DNA of 64,000 nt, from NCBI GenBank assembly GCA_963775295.1, contig CAVZIK010000006.1:1887602-1951601 (forward strand), given 5' to 3'. Below the pieces are notes generated by a model. It was not told the DNA's origin and did no database searches. It worked only from the letters and a program-made list of their open reading frames with translations. The position numbers were made by a program, and so were the translations under genes. Of this stretch, positions 38,847-48,618 are shown in pieces. The stretch's first letter is position 1; each line of letters begins with the position of its first letter. The stretch comes from an uncultured Actinomycetes bacterium. GTDB taxonomy: Bacteria; Actinomycetota; Thermoleophilia; RBG-16-64-13.

Positions 38847-39095
38847 CTTCGCTCAAGGATCGATTGAGATGGCCGTCACCCGACCACTGCTTGCCCGGCA
38901 ATCTTAGCATCGGCGGGCCCTCGGGCGGGAACCGAGTGCTCCAAGCCAAGCCGACCGATATGAGCCAAGGCGCTGGGGTGGACCTTTCCTGCCCCGGCCC
39001 GTCGCTTAATGCGGCCTCATGACGCTTACCTCGCCGAAGCTTTACTGGAAGTATGGGTTGCTGTACGCTGGGTATTGTCACGGGAGGGAGGCCTC

Positions 39096-39344
39096 ATGAC
39101 CGAGTATGGCCCGAACACAAGGCCCTTTAACGTAAGATTGCCACTCTGGGCGGTCGACTACATCGACCGTCGTTCGGAGGAACGCGGCGTCACCAAGACT
39201 CAGATTGTCGTCGATGCGCTCTCGAGCCTTCGGGCCCAGGAGCTCCAGAATCTGATGCGGGAGGGATACGAGGAGATGCGCGTACTCGATCGGCAGATGG
39301 CGCAAGAAGCGCTGCCGGCCTCAGTTGGGAGCCTCACCGAATGA
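39096..39344 (+). CDS. Ribbon-helix-helix antitoxin (MazE/CopG-like)
   Basis: An 82-aa protein (…FNVRLPLWAVDYIDRRSEERGVTKTQIVVDAL…). GGGAGG RBS. Its stop overlaps the start of the MazF-like gene. Confidence 0.65.
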   Translation: MTEYGPNTRPFNVRLPLWAVDYIDRRSEERGVTKTQIVVDALSSLRAQELQNLMREGYEEMRVLDRQMAQEALPASVGSLTE

Positions 39345-39721
39345 GCGGCGGGGCGGGAGTGCGCCGCGGATTCATCTATCTGGTTGATCTCGAACCCGTG
39401 GCTGGCTCGGGCGAAAGCAAGCCACGCCCGGCTCTGGTGGTTCAGAACGATCTTGGGAACCTCTCCGGAGCAACGACGATAGTGGTCGCTCTGAGTTCCC
39501 ACATTCCCTCTCGGCTGTATCCCTTCCATGTGGCCTTGCCGGCGGAGGTTCTGGGCCGCGCCGGCGTCGTAATGTGCGAGCAGATACGCACCGTCGAGAT
39601 GGAGAGGTTGGACCGACAACCGCTGGCCCAATGCCCGTCCGATGTCATGAAACAGGTGGAGCAGGCCCTCCGTCATTCCCTGGGTCTGTCCGTGGAGACC
39701 GCCTCGATCGCCTCACTGTGA
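39341..39721 (+). CDS. MazF/PemK-family endoribonuclease toxin
   Basis: RGFIYLVDLEP…KPRPALVVQND…TIVVALSSH motifs typical of PemK/MazF. Confidence 0.8.
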   Translation: MSGGAGVRRGFIYLVDLEPVAGSGESKPRPALVVQNDLGNLSGATTIVVALSSHIPSRLYPFHVALPAEVLGRAGVVMCEQIRTVEMERLDRQPLAQCPSDVMKQVEQALRHSLGLSVETASIASL

Positions 39722-40783: not shown

Positions 40784-41326
40784 CTAGGCGAAGTAACGCC
40801 CCAGAAGGCCTTTGAAAGCCTTTCCGTGTCGCGCTTCATCGCGGGCCATCTCGTGGACGGCATCGTGGATTGCGTCATATCCGAGTTCTTTTGCGAGCTT
40901 GGCCAGTTCGAACTTGCCCTCGGTGGCGCCGTATTCAGCCTCGACCCGCGCCTGCAAGTTGACCTTGCTCTCGGGAGAAACAAGCTCGCCCAGCATTTCG
41001 CAGAAGCGGGAAGCATGGTCGGCTTCCTCGTAGGCGATGCGCTTGTAGGCTTCCGCAACCTCAGGATAACCCTCGCGGTCGGCGGCCCTGGACATAGCCA
41101 GATACATGCCCACTTCGCTGCACTCTCCATTGAAATTGTTGACGAGACCCTCGATGACTCGTGGATCTATACCCTTTGCTATGCCGATGACGTGCTCGGC
41201 CGCCCAAGTCATTTCGGCTTCAGCTCCGACGACGAATTTGTCTCCGGGAGCCTTGCACCCTGGGCAGCTGTCCGGCGGAGCGTCGCCTTCGTAGACGTAA
41301 CCACACACGCTGCACCTGTATTTCAT
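40784..41326 (-). CDS. Reverse rubrerythrin (N-terminal rubredoxin-like domain followed by a diiron ferritin-like domain)
   Basis: [10 protein letters not shown]…CPGCKA at the N-terminus, then ExxH diiron motifs. An AGGAGG RBS precedes the ATG at 41326. The ORF track starts 16 codons upstream. Confidence 0.85.
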
Positions 41327-41530
41327 TCTGATTCCTCCTAACCACGGATAACGAGCGCGATCGACAGACAAGCACCGGACACGGCCCAGCGCCCCTTTGA
41401 CCTTTCCGCAATAATTCCACGTTCGGACACGATCAAAACATCAAGCTGGCAAATTTTATGAGCCGGGTCGAGTCATGGCAAGATCGTATAGAATTCTCTC
41501 TGAGAAGGGGTGACTGACTGGGAGGATCAC

Positions 41531-42019
41531 TTGTCGCACGTGGAGTTGAACACTCCCGCGCCCGATTTCGAACTGCCCGACTTCGAGGGGAAGGTCTTCC
41601 GTCTTTCCCAATTGCGCGGCACCAGGAACGTACTCTTGGTCTTCAACCGCGGGTTCACGTGACCCTACTGCCGCGCGCACATGGCGCAGTTGCGCCAAGA
41701 CTTTCCGGAGTTTGATAAGCGGGATACCGCGGTTGTGGTTGTAGGGCCTGAGGACGCAACCGCGTTCGCCAGGTATTGGCGCGCAAACCTGCTGCCTTTC
41801 GTTGGGTTGCCGGATCACGAGCACACGGTGCTCAAGCAGTATGGGCAGGAGATAAAGCTGTTCAAGTTCGGGCGGATGCCCGCTCAGGTCTTGGTGGACA
41901 AGGCGGGCCGCGCTCGATTCGTCCACTACGGACACGATATGACCGATATCCCTTCCACGGCAGAGATGCTCAAATTGATCGACGGCTTGGAGCGCTCCAG
42001 AGCCCAGACGCCCGGGTAG
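41531..42019 (+). CDS. Thioredoxin-fold redoxin (TlpA/AhpC-TSA/Prx-like). It has an in-frame TGA at 41660-41662 exactly at the first position of the CxxC active site (…FNRGFT-U-PYCRAH…). This is a candidate selenoprotein, otherwise a pseudogene.
   Basis: A frame that is open, with the single TGA at codon 44, runs from TTG 41531 (GGGAGG RBS 5 nt upstream) to 42019. Its N-terminus is APDFELPDFEGKVFRLSQL…VLLVFNRGFT*PYCRAHM…. Only the C-terminal 112 aa appear in the ORF track. A stem-loop lies 20 nt after the TGA. Confidence 0.5.
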
Positions 42020-42797: not shown

Positions 42798-43142
42798 GTG
42801 TTTCTGATGCTCCTTCCCGAGCAATGCGGCGGACGTGCGCTTCTGTGGATGAATTCTTGCACGATTTCCGTATTCCTGGTACCCGCGGGCGTCGACCCGC
42901 AGTTCCCTCGATCTCGAACAGTCTATGTTTACCCCCTCCAGACGTCTGGGTAACAGGGGGCAGAACGCCGCGTCTGGGGCCGTCGCGTTCTGGTCATCAG
43001 AGCTTTGCGTGAGCGATGATCCCGGTGACGGTTATCAAACCAAAGCCGGGTAGGACTCGCAAATCGGGAGGGGCCATCAAAGGTCGCCACTCCCGAACGT
43101 GTCGGGGTGTGCTTGGTCGCCAATGGGACAAGGGGTGGTCGC

Positions 43143-44705
43143 ATGGCTCAGTCTGAGAAAGACCCGACCGCTGGTGGTGTCCTCCAGGACGAACGCGGTC
43201 GACGGGGGTTCCTTCAGCGGCATTTCGGATCTGAGTATGAGCGGGTAACCGGCTTCGGGGAGATCGTGTACGAGCACGATGACCGTGCTGCCAGAGTCTG
43301 GCTGGCGAGTAGCGTCTTTTGGTTCGTTGTGGTCACCACTTTCGGCATCATCATCGCAATGGAGCTCGCCTTTCCTGAGACGTTCGCCGGGGTCTCCTGG
43401 TTGGTATTCAGCCGCGCCCGTCCAGTCCACGTAGAAGGCGTGGTGTACGCCTGGCTCACCATGATGTATTGGGGAGCTATCACGTACTTCACCCCACGGC
43501 TCTTGGGCACGCGCAGTCTCTGGAGCGAGAAGCTCGGCGTCTATCTGGCGTACCTGTATAATGTCGTCATCGCCGCCGGTTTCTTCGGGATTCTCACCGG
43601 AGCCTCGCAGGGCCGCGAGTGGGCTGAATTTCCATGGCCTGTCGACGTCGCCATCATCTGTATCTTTATCGCCCTCACTTTCAACACCCTCATGACGGTA
43701 AGCATCCGCCGAGTGAGGCCGCTTTATGTGAGTATGTGGTGGGCGATAGCCGCCCCTATCTGGGTCACCGCTTCAATATTCATTGAGAATGTCGTGTGGC
43801 GCCCGGGCGCAATTTGGAGCAACCCCTCGGGCGCCCTTGAGAATGGAATCCACGACGCAATGATCAACTGGTGGGGCAACCACAACCTGTTCGGATTGTG
43901 GCTCACGCCTGTGCTGGTAGCGGTTGTCTATTACTTCATTCCTCGGATCACAAACACGCCCCTGTACAGCCATACACTGTCCTTGGTTTCGTTCTGGGGG
44001 CTGATCTTCGTCTACGCCGCGGTAGGTGACCACCATATATTGCAGAGCCCCACGCCGGGGTGGTTGAAGACCATTTCTTCGGTCAACAGTGTGGCGATCC
44101 TCATCCCAGTGTTCGCCTTCTTCACCAACGTCTTTCTCACCATGCGAGGGCAGTGGAACCGCTTCTTTACGAACTTACCCCTGAGATTCGTGTTGACCGG
44201 CTTCATCTTCTACATCTTGGTCAACCTACAGGGGTCTTTGCAGGCCGTGCAACCCTTCAACATCTACATACACTTCACGTATTTCATCATCGGACACTCC
44301 CATCTGGCTCTGCTTGGAGGGTTCACGATCCTGGGGATGGGGGTCCTCTACTACGTCATCCCACATATATTCAACAAGCCTGTCTATTCCACGGCGCTTG
44401 CGGAGTGGCAGTTCTGGCTGGTGACGTTCGGTTTTCTGCTCTTCTTCGCAGCCGTCACCATCGCCGGTTTCATTCAGGGACAGAGTTGGTTGGCGGGCGA
44501 GCCCGAGGTCAACGTGCTGCCGGCCTTGAGGTTGTGGAACATCGTCCGGGCCCTCGCCGGAGGGATGATCTACCTCTCAGCTTGGGTTCAGATCTACAAC
44601 CTTGTCCGAACCTACGCGAGCGATACCAGCGCCAAGCGCCGCCGTCACGCCGTCGAGGACAACGAGTCCTCTCTGCTGGACACCCAACCCGACATCGTCG
44701 CCTGA
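43143..44705 (+). CDS. ccoN: C-family heme-copper oxidase catalytic subunit (cbb3-type CcoN, or NorB-like)
   Basis: 12+ TM helices. His ligands in WGNHNLFGLW, …GDHHILQ… (CuB HH) and …FIIGHSHLALLGG…. It is followed by a c-type cytochrome gene. Confidence 0.8.
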   Translation: MAQSEKDPTAGGVLQDERGRRGFLQRHFGSEYERVTGFGEIVYEHDDRAARVWLASSVFWFVVVTTFGIIIAMELAFPETFAGVSWLVFSRARPVHVEGVVYAWLTMMYWGAITYFTPRLLGTRSLWSEKLGVYLAYLYNVVIAAGFFGILTGASQGREWAEFPWPVDVAIICIFIALTFNTLMTVSIRRVRPLYVSMWWAIAAPIWVTASIFIENVVWRPGAIWSNPSGALENGIHDAMINWWGNHNLFGLWLTPVLVAVVYYFIPRITNTPLYSHTLSLVSFWGLIFVYAAVGDHHILQSPTPGWLKTISSVNSVAILIPVFAFFTNVFLTMRGQWNRFFTNLPLRFVLTGFIFYILVNLQGSLQAVQPFNIYIHFTYFIIGHSHLALLGGFTILGMGVLYYVIPHIFNKPVYSTALAEWQFWLVTFGFLLFFAAVTIAGFIQGQSWLAGEPEVNVLPALRLWNIVRALAGGMIYLSAWVQIYNLVRTYASDTSAKRRRHAVEDNESSLLDTQPDIVA

Positions 44706-44720
44706 AGGAGGGAGTGAGAC

Positions 44721-46169
44721 ATGGCCGACATGGGCAAGTGGCTGCCGACCTATCAGAGCTTCCCACAGGGTTGGGCTCCCCATCCGCGGAAGCGAATGCT
44801 GATGACACCACTCCTGGTCTTCCTGGGAGGCATCTTCGCTTTCGCGATACCCACACTGGTCGCGGCATTTTTTCAGCTGATGTTCTTCAACGCGCCGGTA
44901 TCCAACAACTGGTCTCCGCTTACGGCCTCGGCGATCGAGGGCAGGAAGGTGTTTGTCGCCAACGGTTGCATCTATTGTCACAGCGGGTACACGAGGCCGC
45001 AGGACGTCCGCACCGGCCTCATGTACCTTTACCCACGCATCTCGCTGCCCGGCGACTTCGTCAGTAGCGACTCCAGCCCAAATGTGTTCGGTTCTGCGCG
45101 CATCGGCCCGGACCTGAGCCAAGAAAGCGGGTTCCATCCTGACGACTGGGAGAGAGCACACTTCAGCGATCCACGGTACGTCGAACCCCTATCGATCATG
45201 CCCCGTTTCATCTTCCTCAGTGACAAGCAGGTGGACGATCTCTCCACCTATCTTCAGCTACGGGCCGGCAAGGACGGACTGGTGCGGTATGCGGGACAAC
45301 TCTATGCCAAGCAGATGCAGAAGGTGGCATTGGGCATCGAGGATCCGCCCACAGGGTTCCAAGGCGCGAAGCTGACGCTCACCGACGTGATGAACTTGGC
45401 CGCGAATGGTTCGAACCCACCGCAGGGGACGGTGGATGGCCTGGATTGGCCCGACCCCATCAACCTCAATATCGTGGACCGGTCGTACTGGCTGGCCGAC
45501 AACCCGCTTCCTGTGACCAAAGACAACCTGCTTCGGGGTCGTCTCATCTTTAGGGAACGTTGCATAGGGTGCCATGGGGACAAAGGTGACGCCGTCAGCG
45601 AGGCGGCCAAGTATCTTCGACCGATGCCCATCGACTTCACCGGACCCGATGACGCGTCGGGAGGCAACGATACGGCGCCGGGAGTCCTGTACTACCGCGT
45701 GCTTCGCGGTATAGAGGGGACCGCCATGGAGAACTTCGGATCTCGGTTGCGGGTCGATGACATATGGCGGGTGGTCCTGTTCCTCAAGACGATACCCAGC
45801 GGCGGCCTCGACCCCTCCAAGGTGCCGACGACAGACATGTATATCCAGTGGAAACCGCCGGATGCCCTTTTGCAGTACGTAGCGGCGCATCCGATAGATC
45901 AGAATAAGAGGTATGTCGAAACGGCCTCGACCACCGATCCATGGATGCTGGAAGCCCAGAGGTTCTTGGCCGGTCTCAATGATTCCGACACCATGGACCT
46001 CCCGGGGTTCGGTACCGTGTCACTCGCCACAGCTCGAGACGGAATCAAGTCCATCTACGACCAGTTACTCGATCAGGGTTGGAACGACTACTTCGCTCGC
46101 GGCGGATCGCCCAGCGTTCCCGCGACTCAGAAGGACATCGCGCCCACTCTGGATGCCGAGCTACGCTAG
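44721..46169 (+). CDS. Fused CcoO-like monoheme subunit plus a second monoheme cytochrome c domain (CcoP-like), membrane-anchored
   Basis: N-terminal TM. CIYCHSGY plus GPDL…W.RAHF.DPR…SIMP (CcoO/FixO signature). A second CxxCH (CIGCHGDKGD) lies in the C-terminal half. Confidence 0.8.
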   Translation: MADMGKWLPTYQSFPQGWAPHPRKRMLMTPLLVFLGGIFAFAIPTLVAAFFQLMFFNAPVSNNWSPLTASAIEGRKVFVANGCIYCHSGYTRPQDVRTGLMYLYPRISLPGDFVSSDSSPNVFGSARIGPDLSQESGFHPDDWERAHFSDPRYVEPLSIMPRFIFLSDKQVDDLSTYLQLRAGKDGLVRYAGQLYAKQMQKVALGIEDPPTGFQGAKLTLTDVMNLAANGSNPPQGTVDGLDWPDPINLNIVDRSYWLADNPLPVTKDNLLRGRLIFRERCIGCHGDKGDAVSEAAKYLRPMPIDFTGPDDASGGNDTAPGVLYYRVLRGIEGTAMENFGSRLRVDDIWRVVLFLKTIPSGGLDPSKVPTTDMYIQWKPPDALLQYVAAHPIDQNKRYVETASTTDPWMLEAQRFLAGLNDSDTMDLPGFGTVSLATARDGIKSIYDQLLDQGWNDYFARGGSPSVPATQKDIAPTLDAELR

Positions 46170-46186
46170 AAAGGAGATAGGGGACA

Positions 46187-46428
46187 TGACCATCGGTCCA
46201 CTTGAAGCGCAACTCCTAGCGTCGTCGGTTCTCGCCGTTCCGGCCATAGCAATACTGCTTTTCGCGGTACTTCGCGGTCACCTCCGGCATCAGGAGGCGG
46301 CTAAATACGCGGTCTTCACCGCGAGGGACGAGCAGGAGGATTTCTGGGACGACGACTGGGATCAGCGCCACGGGCGCGAACTCGCTCCCCCCAAAGGCCG
46401 GCCCAAGCCAATGAAAGGGGGCGATTGA
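46187..46428 (+). CDS. Small single-TM protein (80 aa) downstream of the cbb3 genes
   Basis: GGAGATAGGGG RBS. One hydrophobic helix. Confidence 0.4.
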
Positions 46429-46429
46429 C

Positions 46430-46921
46430 ATGAAGAGGATGCGCGGCAAACATGGTGCGTACCGCATCTACATTGGCGGCGTTCTGCTGTACCTGATTTT
46501 GGGAGCCATACTGGCCGTCCCGGCACAGGCAACGGAGAACACCCTGAACCCCTTCGTGCCGGGGCCCTCCTCCTCTTTGAGCGTCCCGTCTGGTTCAGAT
46601 GACGCGTCGGTGCTTGCCTACTACGACTATCTCAGCCTTCAACACTCCAATTCGCTGAAGGAAACCTACAATTACAACTGGCAGAACTTCCTTATGACCT
46701 ACGCTGTTATCGCGGCGGCCCTCATCTCCCTCTACTTTTTCGCCTTCGCTTGGTATGCGCGCAGACGTGTCGCTGACCTGTATCCGGTGGAAGTTTTCAA
46801 CGGAATCATCACCGAGCGGGGCGGCCCCATCGATGCGTTCAATTATGCCGTTTGGACAATCCTCGGCATCTACATGGTCTATTACACCGTGATCCAGATC
46901 ATCTACGGACAGATCTACTAA
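46430..46921 (+). CDS. Hypothetical membrane protein (163 aa, 3 TM)
   Basis: A hydrophobicity pattern read from the translation. It is co-oriented and tightly packed with the neighbouring genes. Confidence 0.5.
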   Translation: MKRMRGKHGAYRIYIGGVLLYLILGAILAVPAQATENTLNPFVPGPSSSLSVPSGSDDASVLAYYDYLSLQHSNSLKETYNYNWQNFLMTYAVIAAALISLYFFAFAWYARRRVADLYPVEVFNGIITERGGPIDAFNYAVWTILGIYMVYYTVIQIIYGQIY

Positions 46922-46960
46922 CTGCCACTGCCGAATCGAAGGACAAAGGAAGAGCGGGAG

Positions 46961-47347
46961 ATGGAAGAAGTCCGAGATCACCGTATGAAAGAGCACCTGC
47001 AAAGGCTTATAGAGGAGGGCTTGGGCGGGACACGGTACAAGGAGCACGAGATCGCTCCCTACGCTCTGATCGTCCGTGCCCGGATGCCAGCCGAGGTGTG
47101 GAGCGGGGTGTTTTATTCCTGGCTTTCGATGAAGGGGCACCTTCAGGGAATGCACGGCTTCGACCGGACGCAAATGTTCGCGGCCCGAGAGGACGATACC
47201 GTCACCGCCACGTTTGTCACGGTTTGGGATAGGGCCGAGACGATGTATCAATGGTTGCAGGGGGGCTATCCAGTCCCGGACATGTTGGAGGCGATGGGAG
47301 TCCCAGAAGATGTGATCGAGTCGGAACTGGTAAGGGACTACTCCTAA
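46961..47347 (+). CDS. Hypothetical soluble protein, possibly ABM (antibiotic-biosynthesis-monooxygenase)-like fold
   Basis: …TATFVTVWDRAETMYQWLQGGY… resembles ABM-domain signatures. Confidence 0.4.
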   Translation: MEEVRDHRMKEHLQRLIEEGLGGTRYKEHEIAPYALIVRARMPAEVWSGVFYSWLSMKGHLQGMHGFDRTQMFAAREDDTVTATFVTVWDRAETMYQWLQGGYPVPDMLEAMGVPEDVIESELVRDYS

Positions 47348-47387
47348 GTATCCGCCGTCGTGCGGTGGGTTGAGAGGAGCTACTGAG

Positions 47388-47591
47388 ATGACGGAGTATG
47401 AAGAACTGCGAGCGCGCAACCGTATGGACGAGATCGCGTTCGACGCGACTCTGAGACAGAGCTACGAGCGAGAGGACGAGCGGTATAGTGCCGCTAGCCA
47501 GGCCCGGGACTGGCTAATCCTCGTGGCTATCGGGGCCTTCCACTTTGCCTGGATGCTAGTGGTGTTCCTTCTGGAGCCGGGAATCCGTTGA
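47388..47591 (+). CDS. Small C-terminally anchored membrane protein (67 aa)
   Basis: GAGGAG RBS before the ATG. One C-terminal TM helix. Confidence 0.4.
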   Translation: MTEYEELRARNRMDEIAFDATLRQSYEREDERYSAASQARDWLILVAIGAFHFAWMLVVFLLEPGIR

Positions 47592-47601
47592 GGGGTCGCA
47601 G

Positions 47602-48093
47602 ATGAGCTTTGTCCTCGGAACACTCGCAGGTCTCGTGGTGGTCTTCGCGCTGGTGGGCTTGCTGGTCACGGTAAGTGCGCTCAGGTCCGCGAAGGCCGAG
47701 CGGCGAAGCCCGGATCCTAAGGATGACTACTCCCTTCGCGCGAAGATCGGGCGCTATGTAGGTCCGATCGATCCAAACTTGGCCTTGTTCAATCCTCCGG
47801 GACGAGTGGCGACCGAGTTTTTCACATCGCTTTGCGGCTTTCCCGGCATGGGGTGGCTGCTGTCCGGGAGCGTCTTCACCGGGATTGTGTTGCTCTGCTT
47901 GGGCCCGGCCTTCGTTTGGGGGATCTACCCGCTTCTTCTCCTGCTTTCCGGCAAGATGGCGAGCGGACCTTTCGTGGCCGTCCAGTACCTGCCCGGGCTC
48001 GCGATCGGCTCCTCATCGTTGCTCGCCTATAGGGAGATGCAGCTCCGTCGAAGAAGGAAGCGTGTGGCCCAGACTGCCTCCGGCGATGAGTGA
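47602..48093 (+). CDS. Hypothetical membrane protein (163 aa, ~4 TM)
   Basis: A hydrophobicity pattern read from the translation. Its stop and start sit tightly against the neighbouring ORFs. Confidence 0.5.
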   Translation: MSFVLGTLAGLVVVFALVGLLVTVSALRSAKAERRSPDPKDDYSLRAKIGRYVGPIDPNLALFNPPGRVATEFFTSLCGFPGMGWLLSGSVFTGIVLLCLGPAFVWGIYPLLLLLSGKMASGPFVAVQYLPGLAIGSSSLLAYREMQLRRRRKRVAQTASGDE

Positions 48094-48099
48094 GTTTGG

Positions 48100-48618
48100 G
48101 TGCGTTCTGTGACGACCGGCGAGCAACTTCGCAATCCCAGGGAGACGGTTCGACTCACTCGCAGGGCGAAGATAGTTATCCTTGCGGCTCTGGTGCCGGT
48201 CGTGGTGGCCGTCGCCGTGTTGCCACTTATCCTCCTTGCGATTCCCGACCCGCACCCTGTGAAGGTGTCGGGCCTCGCCGGTGAGATCGCCGGAACGTAC
48301 ATCAATCGGCAGGACGGTCTGTACAAGCTCTTCCCGTATACCGCTCCTCTCATGTCGTTTCCTTCCGATGCGCTGGTGGTGGACGGCGATGCGCCCCAGG
48401 TGATAGTCAAGTACCGGCAGCTCGACATCTTGGATGCCTACGGCATCATTGCCTACGGTGATTCACAGGAAGTTCCGGTACAGAAGCAAGTCGATCAGAC
48501 GGAGAAGGCACTCTATCTCAAGCCCACGACTGCACTCGCGACCGGGCAATACGTGGTCACGGCCTCCAGGGACGGGGCGGATGGAGGAACGGACTACTTC
48601 TACTTTCGAGTCCCCTAA
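48100..48618 (+). CDS. Hypothetical N-terminally anchored extracytoplasmic protein (172 aa)
   Basis: N-terminal TM (IVILAALVPVVVAVAVLPLILLAI) followed by a soluble domain. Confidence 0.5.
   Translation: MRSVTTGEQLRNPRETVRLTRRAKIVILAALVPVVVAVAVLPLILLAIPDPHPVKVSGLAGEIAGTYINRQDGLYKLFPYTAPLMSFPSDALVVDGDAPQVIVKYRQLDILDAYGIIAYGDSQEVPVQKQVDQTEKALYLKPTTALATGQYVVTASRDGADGGTDYFYFRVP

Follow-up and report, generated by a model that had tools for sequence, protein, structure and literature searches.

A predicted divergent cbb3-type oxidase cluster with a fused CcoO-cytochrome c subunit and six conserved small downstream genes in an uncultured Actinomycetes bacterium

The window analysed here, a stretch of 64,000 nucleotides from an uncultured Actinomycetes bacterium, encompasses between positions 43143 and 48618 a block of eight co-oriented genes on the + strand that opens with a gene for a CcoN-like catalytic subunit of a cbb3-type cytochrome c oxidase, proceeds with a gene for a fused CcoO-cytochrome c protein and closes with six small genes that we denote s1 to s6 in the order of their occurrence. 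The intergenic gaps in this block are 1-40 nt, so the tight packing on one strand that was described in an earlier reading of this DNA, made from the letters and their open reading frames (ORFs) without database searches (hereafter, the sequence-only reading), is borne out by the gene layout. Inside the block, promoter-like and terminator-like sites do not exceed chance expectation and, given this observation together with the short gaps, it appears likely that the entire block is a single operon for a divergent cbb3-type (C-family) oxidase, in which the small genes would encode accessory or assembly partners of the enzyme. Hydropathy analysis predicts transmembrane (TM) segments in s1 (one), s2 (three), s4 (one), s5 (two or three) and s6 (one) and none in s3, in agreement with the original count of five membrane proteins and one soluble protein. 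None of the six small proteins of the window (0/6) has a direct match in Pfam or NCBIfam, and no homologues of CcoQ, CcoG, CcoH or CcoI were detected either in the cluster or in a scan of the 10 largest ORFs elsewhere in the window. The statement of the sequence-only reading that the small proteins resemble none of CcoQ, CcoG, CcoH, CcoI and CcoS thus stands for the first four of these and fails for CcoS, in view of the s1 family discussed below. The same reading also noted that the GC content of the block is lower than that of the flanking genes; this is marginally true (58.7% against 60.9% for the window) and carries no weight, the deficit being due for the most part to the gene of the hydrophobic CcoN (57.3%) and the GC content at third codon positions (0.75-0.76 in the block) being the same as in the neighbouring genes. 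On the same grounds, a foreign origin of the block inferred from its low GC has to be rejected.

The first gene (43143..44705, +) encodes the CcoN-like protein of 520 amino acids (aa), or of 532 aa if translation starts at an alternative GTG codon at 43107. This protein matches the Pfam COX1 family with 268 bits and the ccoN model TIGR00780 with 286 bits, the latter score being under the equivalog cut-off of 583. The top sequence matches in the PDB are CcoN chains of cbb3 oxidases (9g83, 6xkw, 9g6b and 3mk7; E-values from 4e-63 to 3e-61, about 215 bits), with an identity to canonical cbb3 CcoN of only about 30-35%, whereas NorB (3o0r) is found with an E-value of 5e-6 and about 29 bits. The histidines H96, H247, H297, H298, H385 and H387 align with H60, H207, H257, H258, H345 and H347 of Pseudomonas stutzeri CcoN, that is, with the complete set of two ligands of the low-spin haem b, one of the high-spin haem b3 and three of CuB. 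Furthermore, Y291 aligns with Y251 of the P. stutzeri protein, the cross-link tyrosine located six residues ahead of the HH pair in helix VII, the role of which in C-family oxidases has been described (PMC11214002). The six histidines and Y291 do not vary among the 26 relatives that were aligned. When the proton-channel residues were checked, as the sequence-only reading had proposed, T215, Y223, S240 and Y317 of P. stutzeri, which we take to be residues of the proposed cbb3 proton path, turned out to be retained in the window protein. E323 and H243, which presumably lie close to both the active site and this path, are replaced by Gln (Q363) and Ser (S283), respectively. These substitutions are nearly invariant or invariant across the clade and may point to a modified proton pathway.

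So could the enzyme be a variant of the NorB/NorC-like NO reductases, the alternative that the sequence-only reading put forward? In favour of this possibility, the cytochrome c-type NO reductases (cNOR) form the sister group of the C-family oxidases (PMC11214002), sequence comparison does detect NorB at the E-value given above, and the window clade has Q363 and S283 in place of E323 and H243. Against it, the match to the cbb3 CcoN chains by far exceeds that to NorB, Y291 and the three CuB histidines are invariant, the partner subunit matches FixO and not NorC, and a CcoS-like gene is present in the cluster. In addition, no Glu is found after H247 in the alignment of the window CcoN to the P. 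stutzeri protein and the 26 relatives. The Glu ligand of FeB in NorB, we assume from the Pseudomonas aeruginosa cNOR structure, sits one turn past the residue equivalent to H247. The sequence scores and the active-site residues contradict the NO reductase alternative, which we hold to be highly improbable. Thus, because the cbb3-type residues are kept, the cbb3 scores greatly exceed those for NorB and the TIGR00780 score falls under the cut-off, the window CcoN is predicted to be a divergent C-family O2 reductase with a complete O2-reducing centre and not a cNOR, and the original assignment of the catalytic subunit is upheld by the PDB matches and the invariant histidines and tyrosine.

The second gene (44721..46169, +) encodes a protein of 482 aa whose translation contains all the motifs recognized initially, namely CIYCHSGY, GPDL, WERAHFSDPRY, SIMP and CIGCHGDKGD, and among these two CxxCH motifs. 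In Pfam searches, residues 30-201 match FixO (86.9 bits against a cut-off of 29.6) and residues 270-358 match the Cytochrome_CBB3/Cytochrom_C families; a single N-terminal TM segment spans residues 31-49, and the protein carries a C-terminal extension of about 125 aa. The combination of FixO with a cbb3-type cytochrome c domain and the two CxxCH motifs substantiates the proposal of the sequence-only reading that this protein is a fusion of CcoO with a monohaem CcoP. It is predicted to consist of CcoO and one CcoP-like class-I haem-c domain, to carry two haems c in total and to be held in the membrane by the single TM helix of CcoO. A fused CcoO-cytochrome c architecture is already known and is represented by NCBIfam NF011054 ('bifunctional subunit II/cytochrome c'), which covers variants in which, as in the window protein, CcoO is joined to cytochrome c domain(s) at the C-terminus; with 115 bits, the window protein stays far under the cut-off of this model (447 bits).

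Are the six genes downstream of this oxidase pair genuine and do they belong with it? A profile search with CcoN yielded 80 loci from species-representative genomes, all of them metagenome-assembled genomes (MAGs); their labels are, with few exceptions, Actinomycetota (Thermoleophilia, Gaiellales, Solirubrobacterales) or Chloroflexota (Anaerolineae, Caldilineae, Ardenticatenaceae). Conservation was counted by tblastn with the window proteins in those 62 loci whose sequence extends for at least 7 kb past ccoN; the queries are single sequences and the identities are 20-45%, and the counts are therefore lower bounds. The fused CcoO-cytochrome c gene was found in all 62 loci, and the small genes follow in colinear order, s2 and s3 in 50 of the 62 loci each, s4 in 56, s5 in 61 and s6 in 57, with a gene in the position of s1, between the fused gene and s2, kept in nearly all loci. 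The ratios of non-synonymous to synonymous substitution rates (dN/dS) for all six small genes, estimated against four relatives, are between 0.03 and 0.24, these values being approximate because dS is saturated. In the closest contigs, independent gene callers predict products of 79, 165, 128, 67, 165 and 169 aa. These data bear directly on the possibility that the small ORFs are spurious frames or unrelated passengers, a legitimate concern given that high-GC DNA is rich in long spurious ORFs (120 in 15 kb were listed) and that the window proteins have no direct database matches. The same gene order in two phyla, the low dN/dS, the agreement of the gene callers in relatives, the confident structural models of s3 and s6 and the invariant residue motifs all speak against this explanation, to which we assign next to no credence and which the conservation data have effectively refuted. 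By the comparative evidence, the six downstream genes are real, conserved, co-oriented partners of the oxidase across two phyla. The sequence-only reading had named a lack of conservation of the small ORFs next to ccoN homologues as a finding that would refute it, and conservation is what we find; its suggestion of lineage-specific accessory or assembly subunits fits these data except that the set spans two phyla rather than being confined to one lineage.

The first of the small genes, s1 (46186..46428, +; 80 aa, single TM helix), belongs to the one family among the six for which a known counterpart emerges. Pfam FixS (PF03597) is matched by 19 of the 37 s1 orthologues (best E-value 9.4e-7), and the comparison of the s1 family with three CcoS sequences by hhalign gives a probability of 94.8% and an E-value of 5e-8. 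Most copies of s1 are about 100 aa long and consist of a signal peptide, the segment AHDxPE..W.MADWM, a TM helix and then K.G....LE.AKY.IL.I.E.DYYTPDWA. The FixS signature, one TM helix followed by (K/R)xG...L(E/D)...IL..(D/E), is matched at the level of the family. The window s1 itself is shortened at the N-terminus, missing the signal peptide and the AHDxPE..W.MADWM segment typical of most relatives, and has no match to PF03597 at E<=1. Taken together, these comparisons identify the s1 family as probable divergent CcoS/FixS proteins. In model bacteria, CcoS is required for active CcoN loaded with its cofactors, haems b and b3 and CuB (PMC8267372, citing Koch 2000, Kulajta 2006). By analogy, s1 would be a CcoS-type maturation factor acting on the cofactors of the oxidase.

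Two further small genes encode membrane proteins with strongly conserved short motifs. The s2 protein (46430..46921, +; 163 aa) has three TM segments, of which the first may be a signal or anchor; this additional N-terminal hydrophobic segment is a feature of the window clade, and the core of the family consists of two TM helices around a basic loop, YPVExxxGYxxExxGP, and a C-terminal GQxY. E129 and G160 are invariant, and the GQxY terminus is conserved. Family and profile searches detected no Pfam family and no sequence relative in the PDB for s2; an hhalign comparison with a 74-aa hypothetical protein of Sinorhizobium meliloti pSymA gives 70.8% (E 3.8e-5) over the loop and the second TM helix. 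The visual resemblance of s2, in the motif preceding the TM helix and in topology, to FixP_N, with its (H)EWDGIxExxNPxPxWW motif, is a lead only. The candidate identity that it suggests, a split-off N-terminal anchor of CcoP (FixP_N, PF14715), finds no support in sequence comparisons: FixP_N is matched by a single member out of 34 (E 0.043), the consensus yields no match and hhalign gives 3.2%. The s4 protein (47388..47591, +; 67 aa, or 73 aa from a TTG start at 47370) has a single TM helix, a segment ED.RW on the cytoplasmic side and, at its very C-terminal end, the invariant sequence EPG(I/L)R; R32, W42, P64, G65 and R67 are invariant among 35 orthologues. An identification of s4 with CcoQ is unsupported, with no match to any Pfam family among the 35 members and an hhalign probability of 16.6% (E 1.5e-3) against a two-sequence CcoQ profile. 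With an invariant cytoplasmic loop and outward-facing C-termini, s2 and s4 fit fixed contacts with other proteins. They are predicted to be small membrane subunits that pack on CcoN and the fused subunit and replace CcoQ and the missing anchor of CcoP.

The only soluble member of the set, s3 (46961..47347, +; 128 aa), was described in the sequence-only reading as ABM-like, and this assignment is corroborated by the predicted structure and by the family profile. The AlphaFold2 model (mean predicted local distance difference test (pLDDT) score 81.9, core >90) is a ferredoxin-like beta-alpha-beta-beta-alpha-beta fold, and the Foldseek search of the PDB ranks IsdG, IsdI, SnoaB and other ABM proteins first, with E-values down to 1e-5. 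The consensus of the s3 family passes the Pfam ABM (PF03992) threshold (28.1 against 23.1 bits), whereas the window sequence alone falls short of it. Among the top structural matches, IsdG and IsdI are haem-binding proteins with the same fold, and their identity to s3 is only 10-16%. In all, s3 is probably a cytoplasmic ABM protein, and it may handle haem.

The last two genes appear to form a pair of their own. The s5 protein (47602..48093, +; 163 aa, two or three TM segments) carries the conserved motif GFPGxGW...GPA..W, and neither the window protein nor the family consensus has a match in Pfam. The s6 protein (48100..48618, +; 172 aa) is predicted to consist of an N-terminal TM anchor and an extracytoplasmic beta-sandwich; in the AlphaFold2 model (mean pLDDT 93.8), a helix at residues 21-46 precedes the sandwich. 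An exhaustive search of 1.84 billion proteins retrieved 79 cluster representatives homologous to s6. The top PDB folds for s6 are CopC and PcoC, with weak matches (Foldseek E 3e-3, target TM-score 0.5-0.6) to a beta-sandwich of similar size, and the C-terminal hairpin L..G.Y.V....D..G...F.V resembles, as far as we can tell, the hairpin of CopC. Unlike CopC and PcoC, s6 has no conserved His or Met ligands, there being no conserved His, Met or Cys among 54 homologues; a role of s6 as a copper chaperone is accordingly rejected. No Pfam family is matched by s6, the CopC family (PF04234) being touched by one of the 54 members with an E-value of 0.17. FixH (PF05751) was also considered and rejected, given the lack of Pfam matches in the 54 members and an hhalign probability of 0.1% against two FixH sequences. 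Past s6, a convergent gene that by eye is 2-hydroxyacyl-CoA-dehydratase-like begins after 43 nt.

The anatomy of the cluster in the relatives puts s5 and s6 in a different light. In 63 of the 80 loci, a COX1-like domain (Pfam COX1; 79.5 bits for the consensus) occurs past s4, and most of these loci contain a single ORF of 1060-1120 aa (for example, L013:14279-17635 and L033:13981-17181) that joins a 12-TM COX1-like domain, s5, s6 and a C-terminal TM domain of about 250 aa. We know of no described counterpart of this fusion protein. The COX1-like paralogue retains the HxH of helix X, which aligns with H385/H387 of CcoN, and several other conserved histidines, and has no His at the CuB positions. 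In the closest clade of the window, the COX1-like domain is absent and s6 is followed by a CopC-CopD fusion of about 600 aa; CopC-CopD past s6 is found in L001 (15503-17332), L003, L004, L007, L009, L021 and L082 (8824-10668). In three loci, a gene for a B12-binding radical-SAM protein of 478-508 aa lies just before s5 (L082:6270-7796, L088:3574-5010 and L008:15595-16179). Since neither a COX1-like domain nor CopC-CopD nor a B12 radical-SAM gene is present in the window, the window contains the most reduced form of the cluster. Furthermore, because close relatives have CopC-CopD after s6 and the window has the convergent gene there, the comparison suggests that a rearrangement removed the copper-handling CopC-CopD gene from the window copy.

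The variable company of s5 and s6 makes it necessary to consider that the cluster comprises two modules, s1-s4 belonging to the oxidase and s5-s6 being separate, with the CuB-less COX1-like paralogue, CopCD or the B12 radical-SAM enzyme as the true partner and the window copy as a leftover that has lost it; in a variant of this scenario, s5-s6 might function in copper uptake or as a haem-protein system and simply be carried along beside ccoN. This explanation draws on the COX1-like domain at the s5-s6 position in the 63 loci, mostly fused to s5 and s6, in which the helix-X HxH is kept and the CuB histidines are absent, on the radical-SAM gene preceding s5-s6 in L082 and L088, on the location of s5-s6 upstream of ccoN and apart from s1-s4 in L006 and L088, and on CopCD following s6 in L001, L003, L004, L007, L009 and L021. 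It has to contend with the fact that s5 and s6 evolve under purifying selection in the window clade, in which the COX1-like partner is missing (dN/dS 0.09-0.24), and that, wherever flanking DNA is present, they lie within a few kb of ccoN. An independent homologue of s6, with s5, is located directly upstream of ccoN-ccoO, and no s6 homologue was found in a clearly oxidase-free context, with three looked up, two of them on uninformative contigs. We therefore consider the two-module arrangement unlikely, though deserving more attention than the other alternatives.

The interpretation that we prefer is that the small genes probably encode extra subunits or assembly helpers of the oxidase, an accessory set that would stand in for ccoQ and part of ccoGHIS. 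Within this interpretation, s5 and s6 could be a membrane module for scaffolding or assembly and possibly for copper supply; a function in cofactor delivery is suggested by the link of these genes to CopCD and to a paralogue resembling haem-copper oxidases. Actinomycetota and Chloroflexota are generally regarded as single-membrane lineages, and therefore it would be sensible for every extracytoplasmic part of such a system to be anchored in the membrane. In its most specific form, which is tentative and in our opinion somewhat more likely to be wrong than right, this hypothesis holds that s2-s6 are a phylum-spanning module of cbb3 subunits and biogenesis factors that in relatives includes the CuB-less COX1-like paralogue or CopCD and that replaces CcoQ, CcoG, CcoH and CcoI. 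The ABM protein would deliver haem b, and the ligand-free CopC-fold anchor would dock copper-supply proteins on CcoN.

Several observations weigh against the assignment of the complete set to the oxidase. The window s1 lacks a direct FixS match as well as the N-terminal half of its family, the likeness of s3 to IsdG may merely reflect the common ABM fold, and s6 resembles CopC only weakly (E 3e-3). In s2, s4, s5 and s6, there are neither conserved metal or cofactor ligands nor detectable homology to CcoQ, FixP_N or FixH. The context of s5 and s6 shifts among the loci, from behind the COX1-like domain to after the B12 radical-SAM gene to upstream of ccoN (L006, L088), so these proteins may serve a partner other than CcoN, and the choice between the oxidase and a neighbouring module for s5/s6 is the weakest link in the argument. 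More generally, whatever role we propose for s1-s6 beyond that of conserved neighbours, we infer it from sequences and models.

In functional terms, the interest of these observations stems from the fact that cbb3 oxidases enable respiration at very low oxygen and that the way they are assembled has been worked out for no more than a few Proteobacteria. Actinomycetota and Chloroflexota that are abundant in soil apparently carry a differently built cbb3 enzyme, with a fused CcoO-cytochrome c subunit and five unannotated protein families. Working out the functions of s2-s6 would show how haem and copper are delivered to a C-family oxidase without the CcoG/H/I machinery, and would make several proteins that are now only hypothetical in soil MAGs available as markers of microaerobic respiration.

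Two other features of the window, upstream of the oxidase block, are worth recording. A gene at 41510-42019 (+), flanked by a rubrerythrin-like gene (40784-41371, -) on one side and by the oxidase operon on the other, by eye encodes a thioredoxin-fold, AhpC/TSA-like protein and contains a single in-frame TGA at 41660-41662. This codon falls in a redox motif (...NRGFT-TGA-PYC-RAH...) and might specify the selenocysteine of a UxxC site; about 22 nt downstream of the TGA, there is a hairpin of 6 bp, GGCGCAGUUGCGCC, and the folding of this region is no better than that of shuffled sequences (z 0.39). The gene may encode a selenoprotein or be a pseudogene. Farther upstream, the overlapping small genes 39009-39344 and 39341-39721 (+) resemble, by eye, a ribbon-helix-helix (RHH)-type antitoxin followed by a MazF/PemK-like toxin.

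How does the predicted oxidase compare with the systems that have been described? The canonical cbb3 enzymes, with CcoNOQP and the ccoGHIS genes (P. stutzeri, 3mk7/5djq; Rhodobacter capsulatus, 6xkw), share with the window cluster the same six histidines, the cross-link tyrosine, the monohaem CcoO partner, a haem-c domain of the CcoP type and, probably, a CcoS-type factor. They differ in that CcoP in the window is reduced to one haem domain attached to CcoO, that s2-s6 have no counterpart in the canonical systems and that E323 and H243 of P. stutzeri CcoN are Gln and Ser in the window protein. The CcoH/FixH proteins resemble s6 in having one N-terminal TM segment followed by an outward-facing domain that is about 120 aa long, and in being encoded near cbb3 genes, but show no sequence likeness to it. 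A closer relative is found on pSymA of S. meliloti (L083:7938-14662), where the CcoN is, among plasmid-borne ones, the closest to that of the window (35.6% identity, compared with about 29% for canonical fixN). Unlike in the window, the CcoO fusion on pSymA is a 554-aa protein with two extra haem domains, and the fused gene is followed by genes for two short proteins, the s2-like one of 74 aa and another of 40 aa, and for a DsbD_2/TauE-like protein and a P-type ATPase, and not by s1 or s3-s6. On the megaplasmid of Ralstonia solanacearum (L091:6710-10985), ccoN and ccoO are accompanied by a gene for a separate cytochrome c and by genes for an SCO protein and a hypothetical protein. The CcoN proteins of these two loci are 33-36% identical to the window protein and are nearer to it than canonical fixN.

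The accessory set as such was not found described in the literature searched, the coverage of which is thin for subscription papers, and the database sources that name the proteins of the small genes list them as 'hypothetical protein'. Small, lineage-restricted partners of cbb3 oxidases are nevertheless already known and provide a precedent for the set in the window. In Pseudomonas, CcoM is a small cbb3 subunit encoded next to ccoNOP that is needed for stability or full activity of the enzyme (PMC4742706), and in Campylobacter jejuni the same holds for CcoX/Y/Z and CcoH (PMC8267372). Like the window proteins, these partners are small; they mostly contain a single TM helix, and no sequence relationship between the two groups was detected. 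Compared with them, the set in the window has more members, one of them a soluble ABM protein, and occurs in two phyla.

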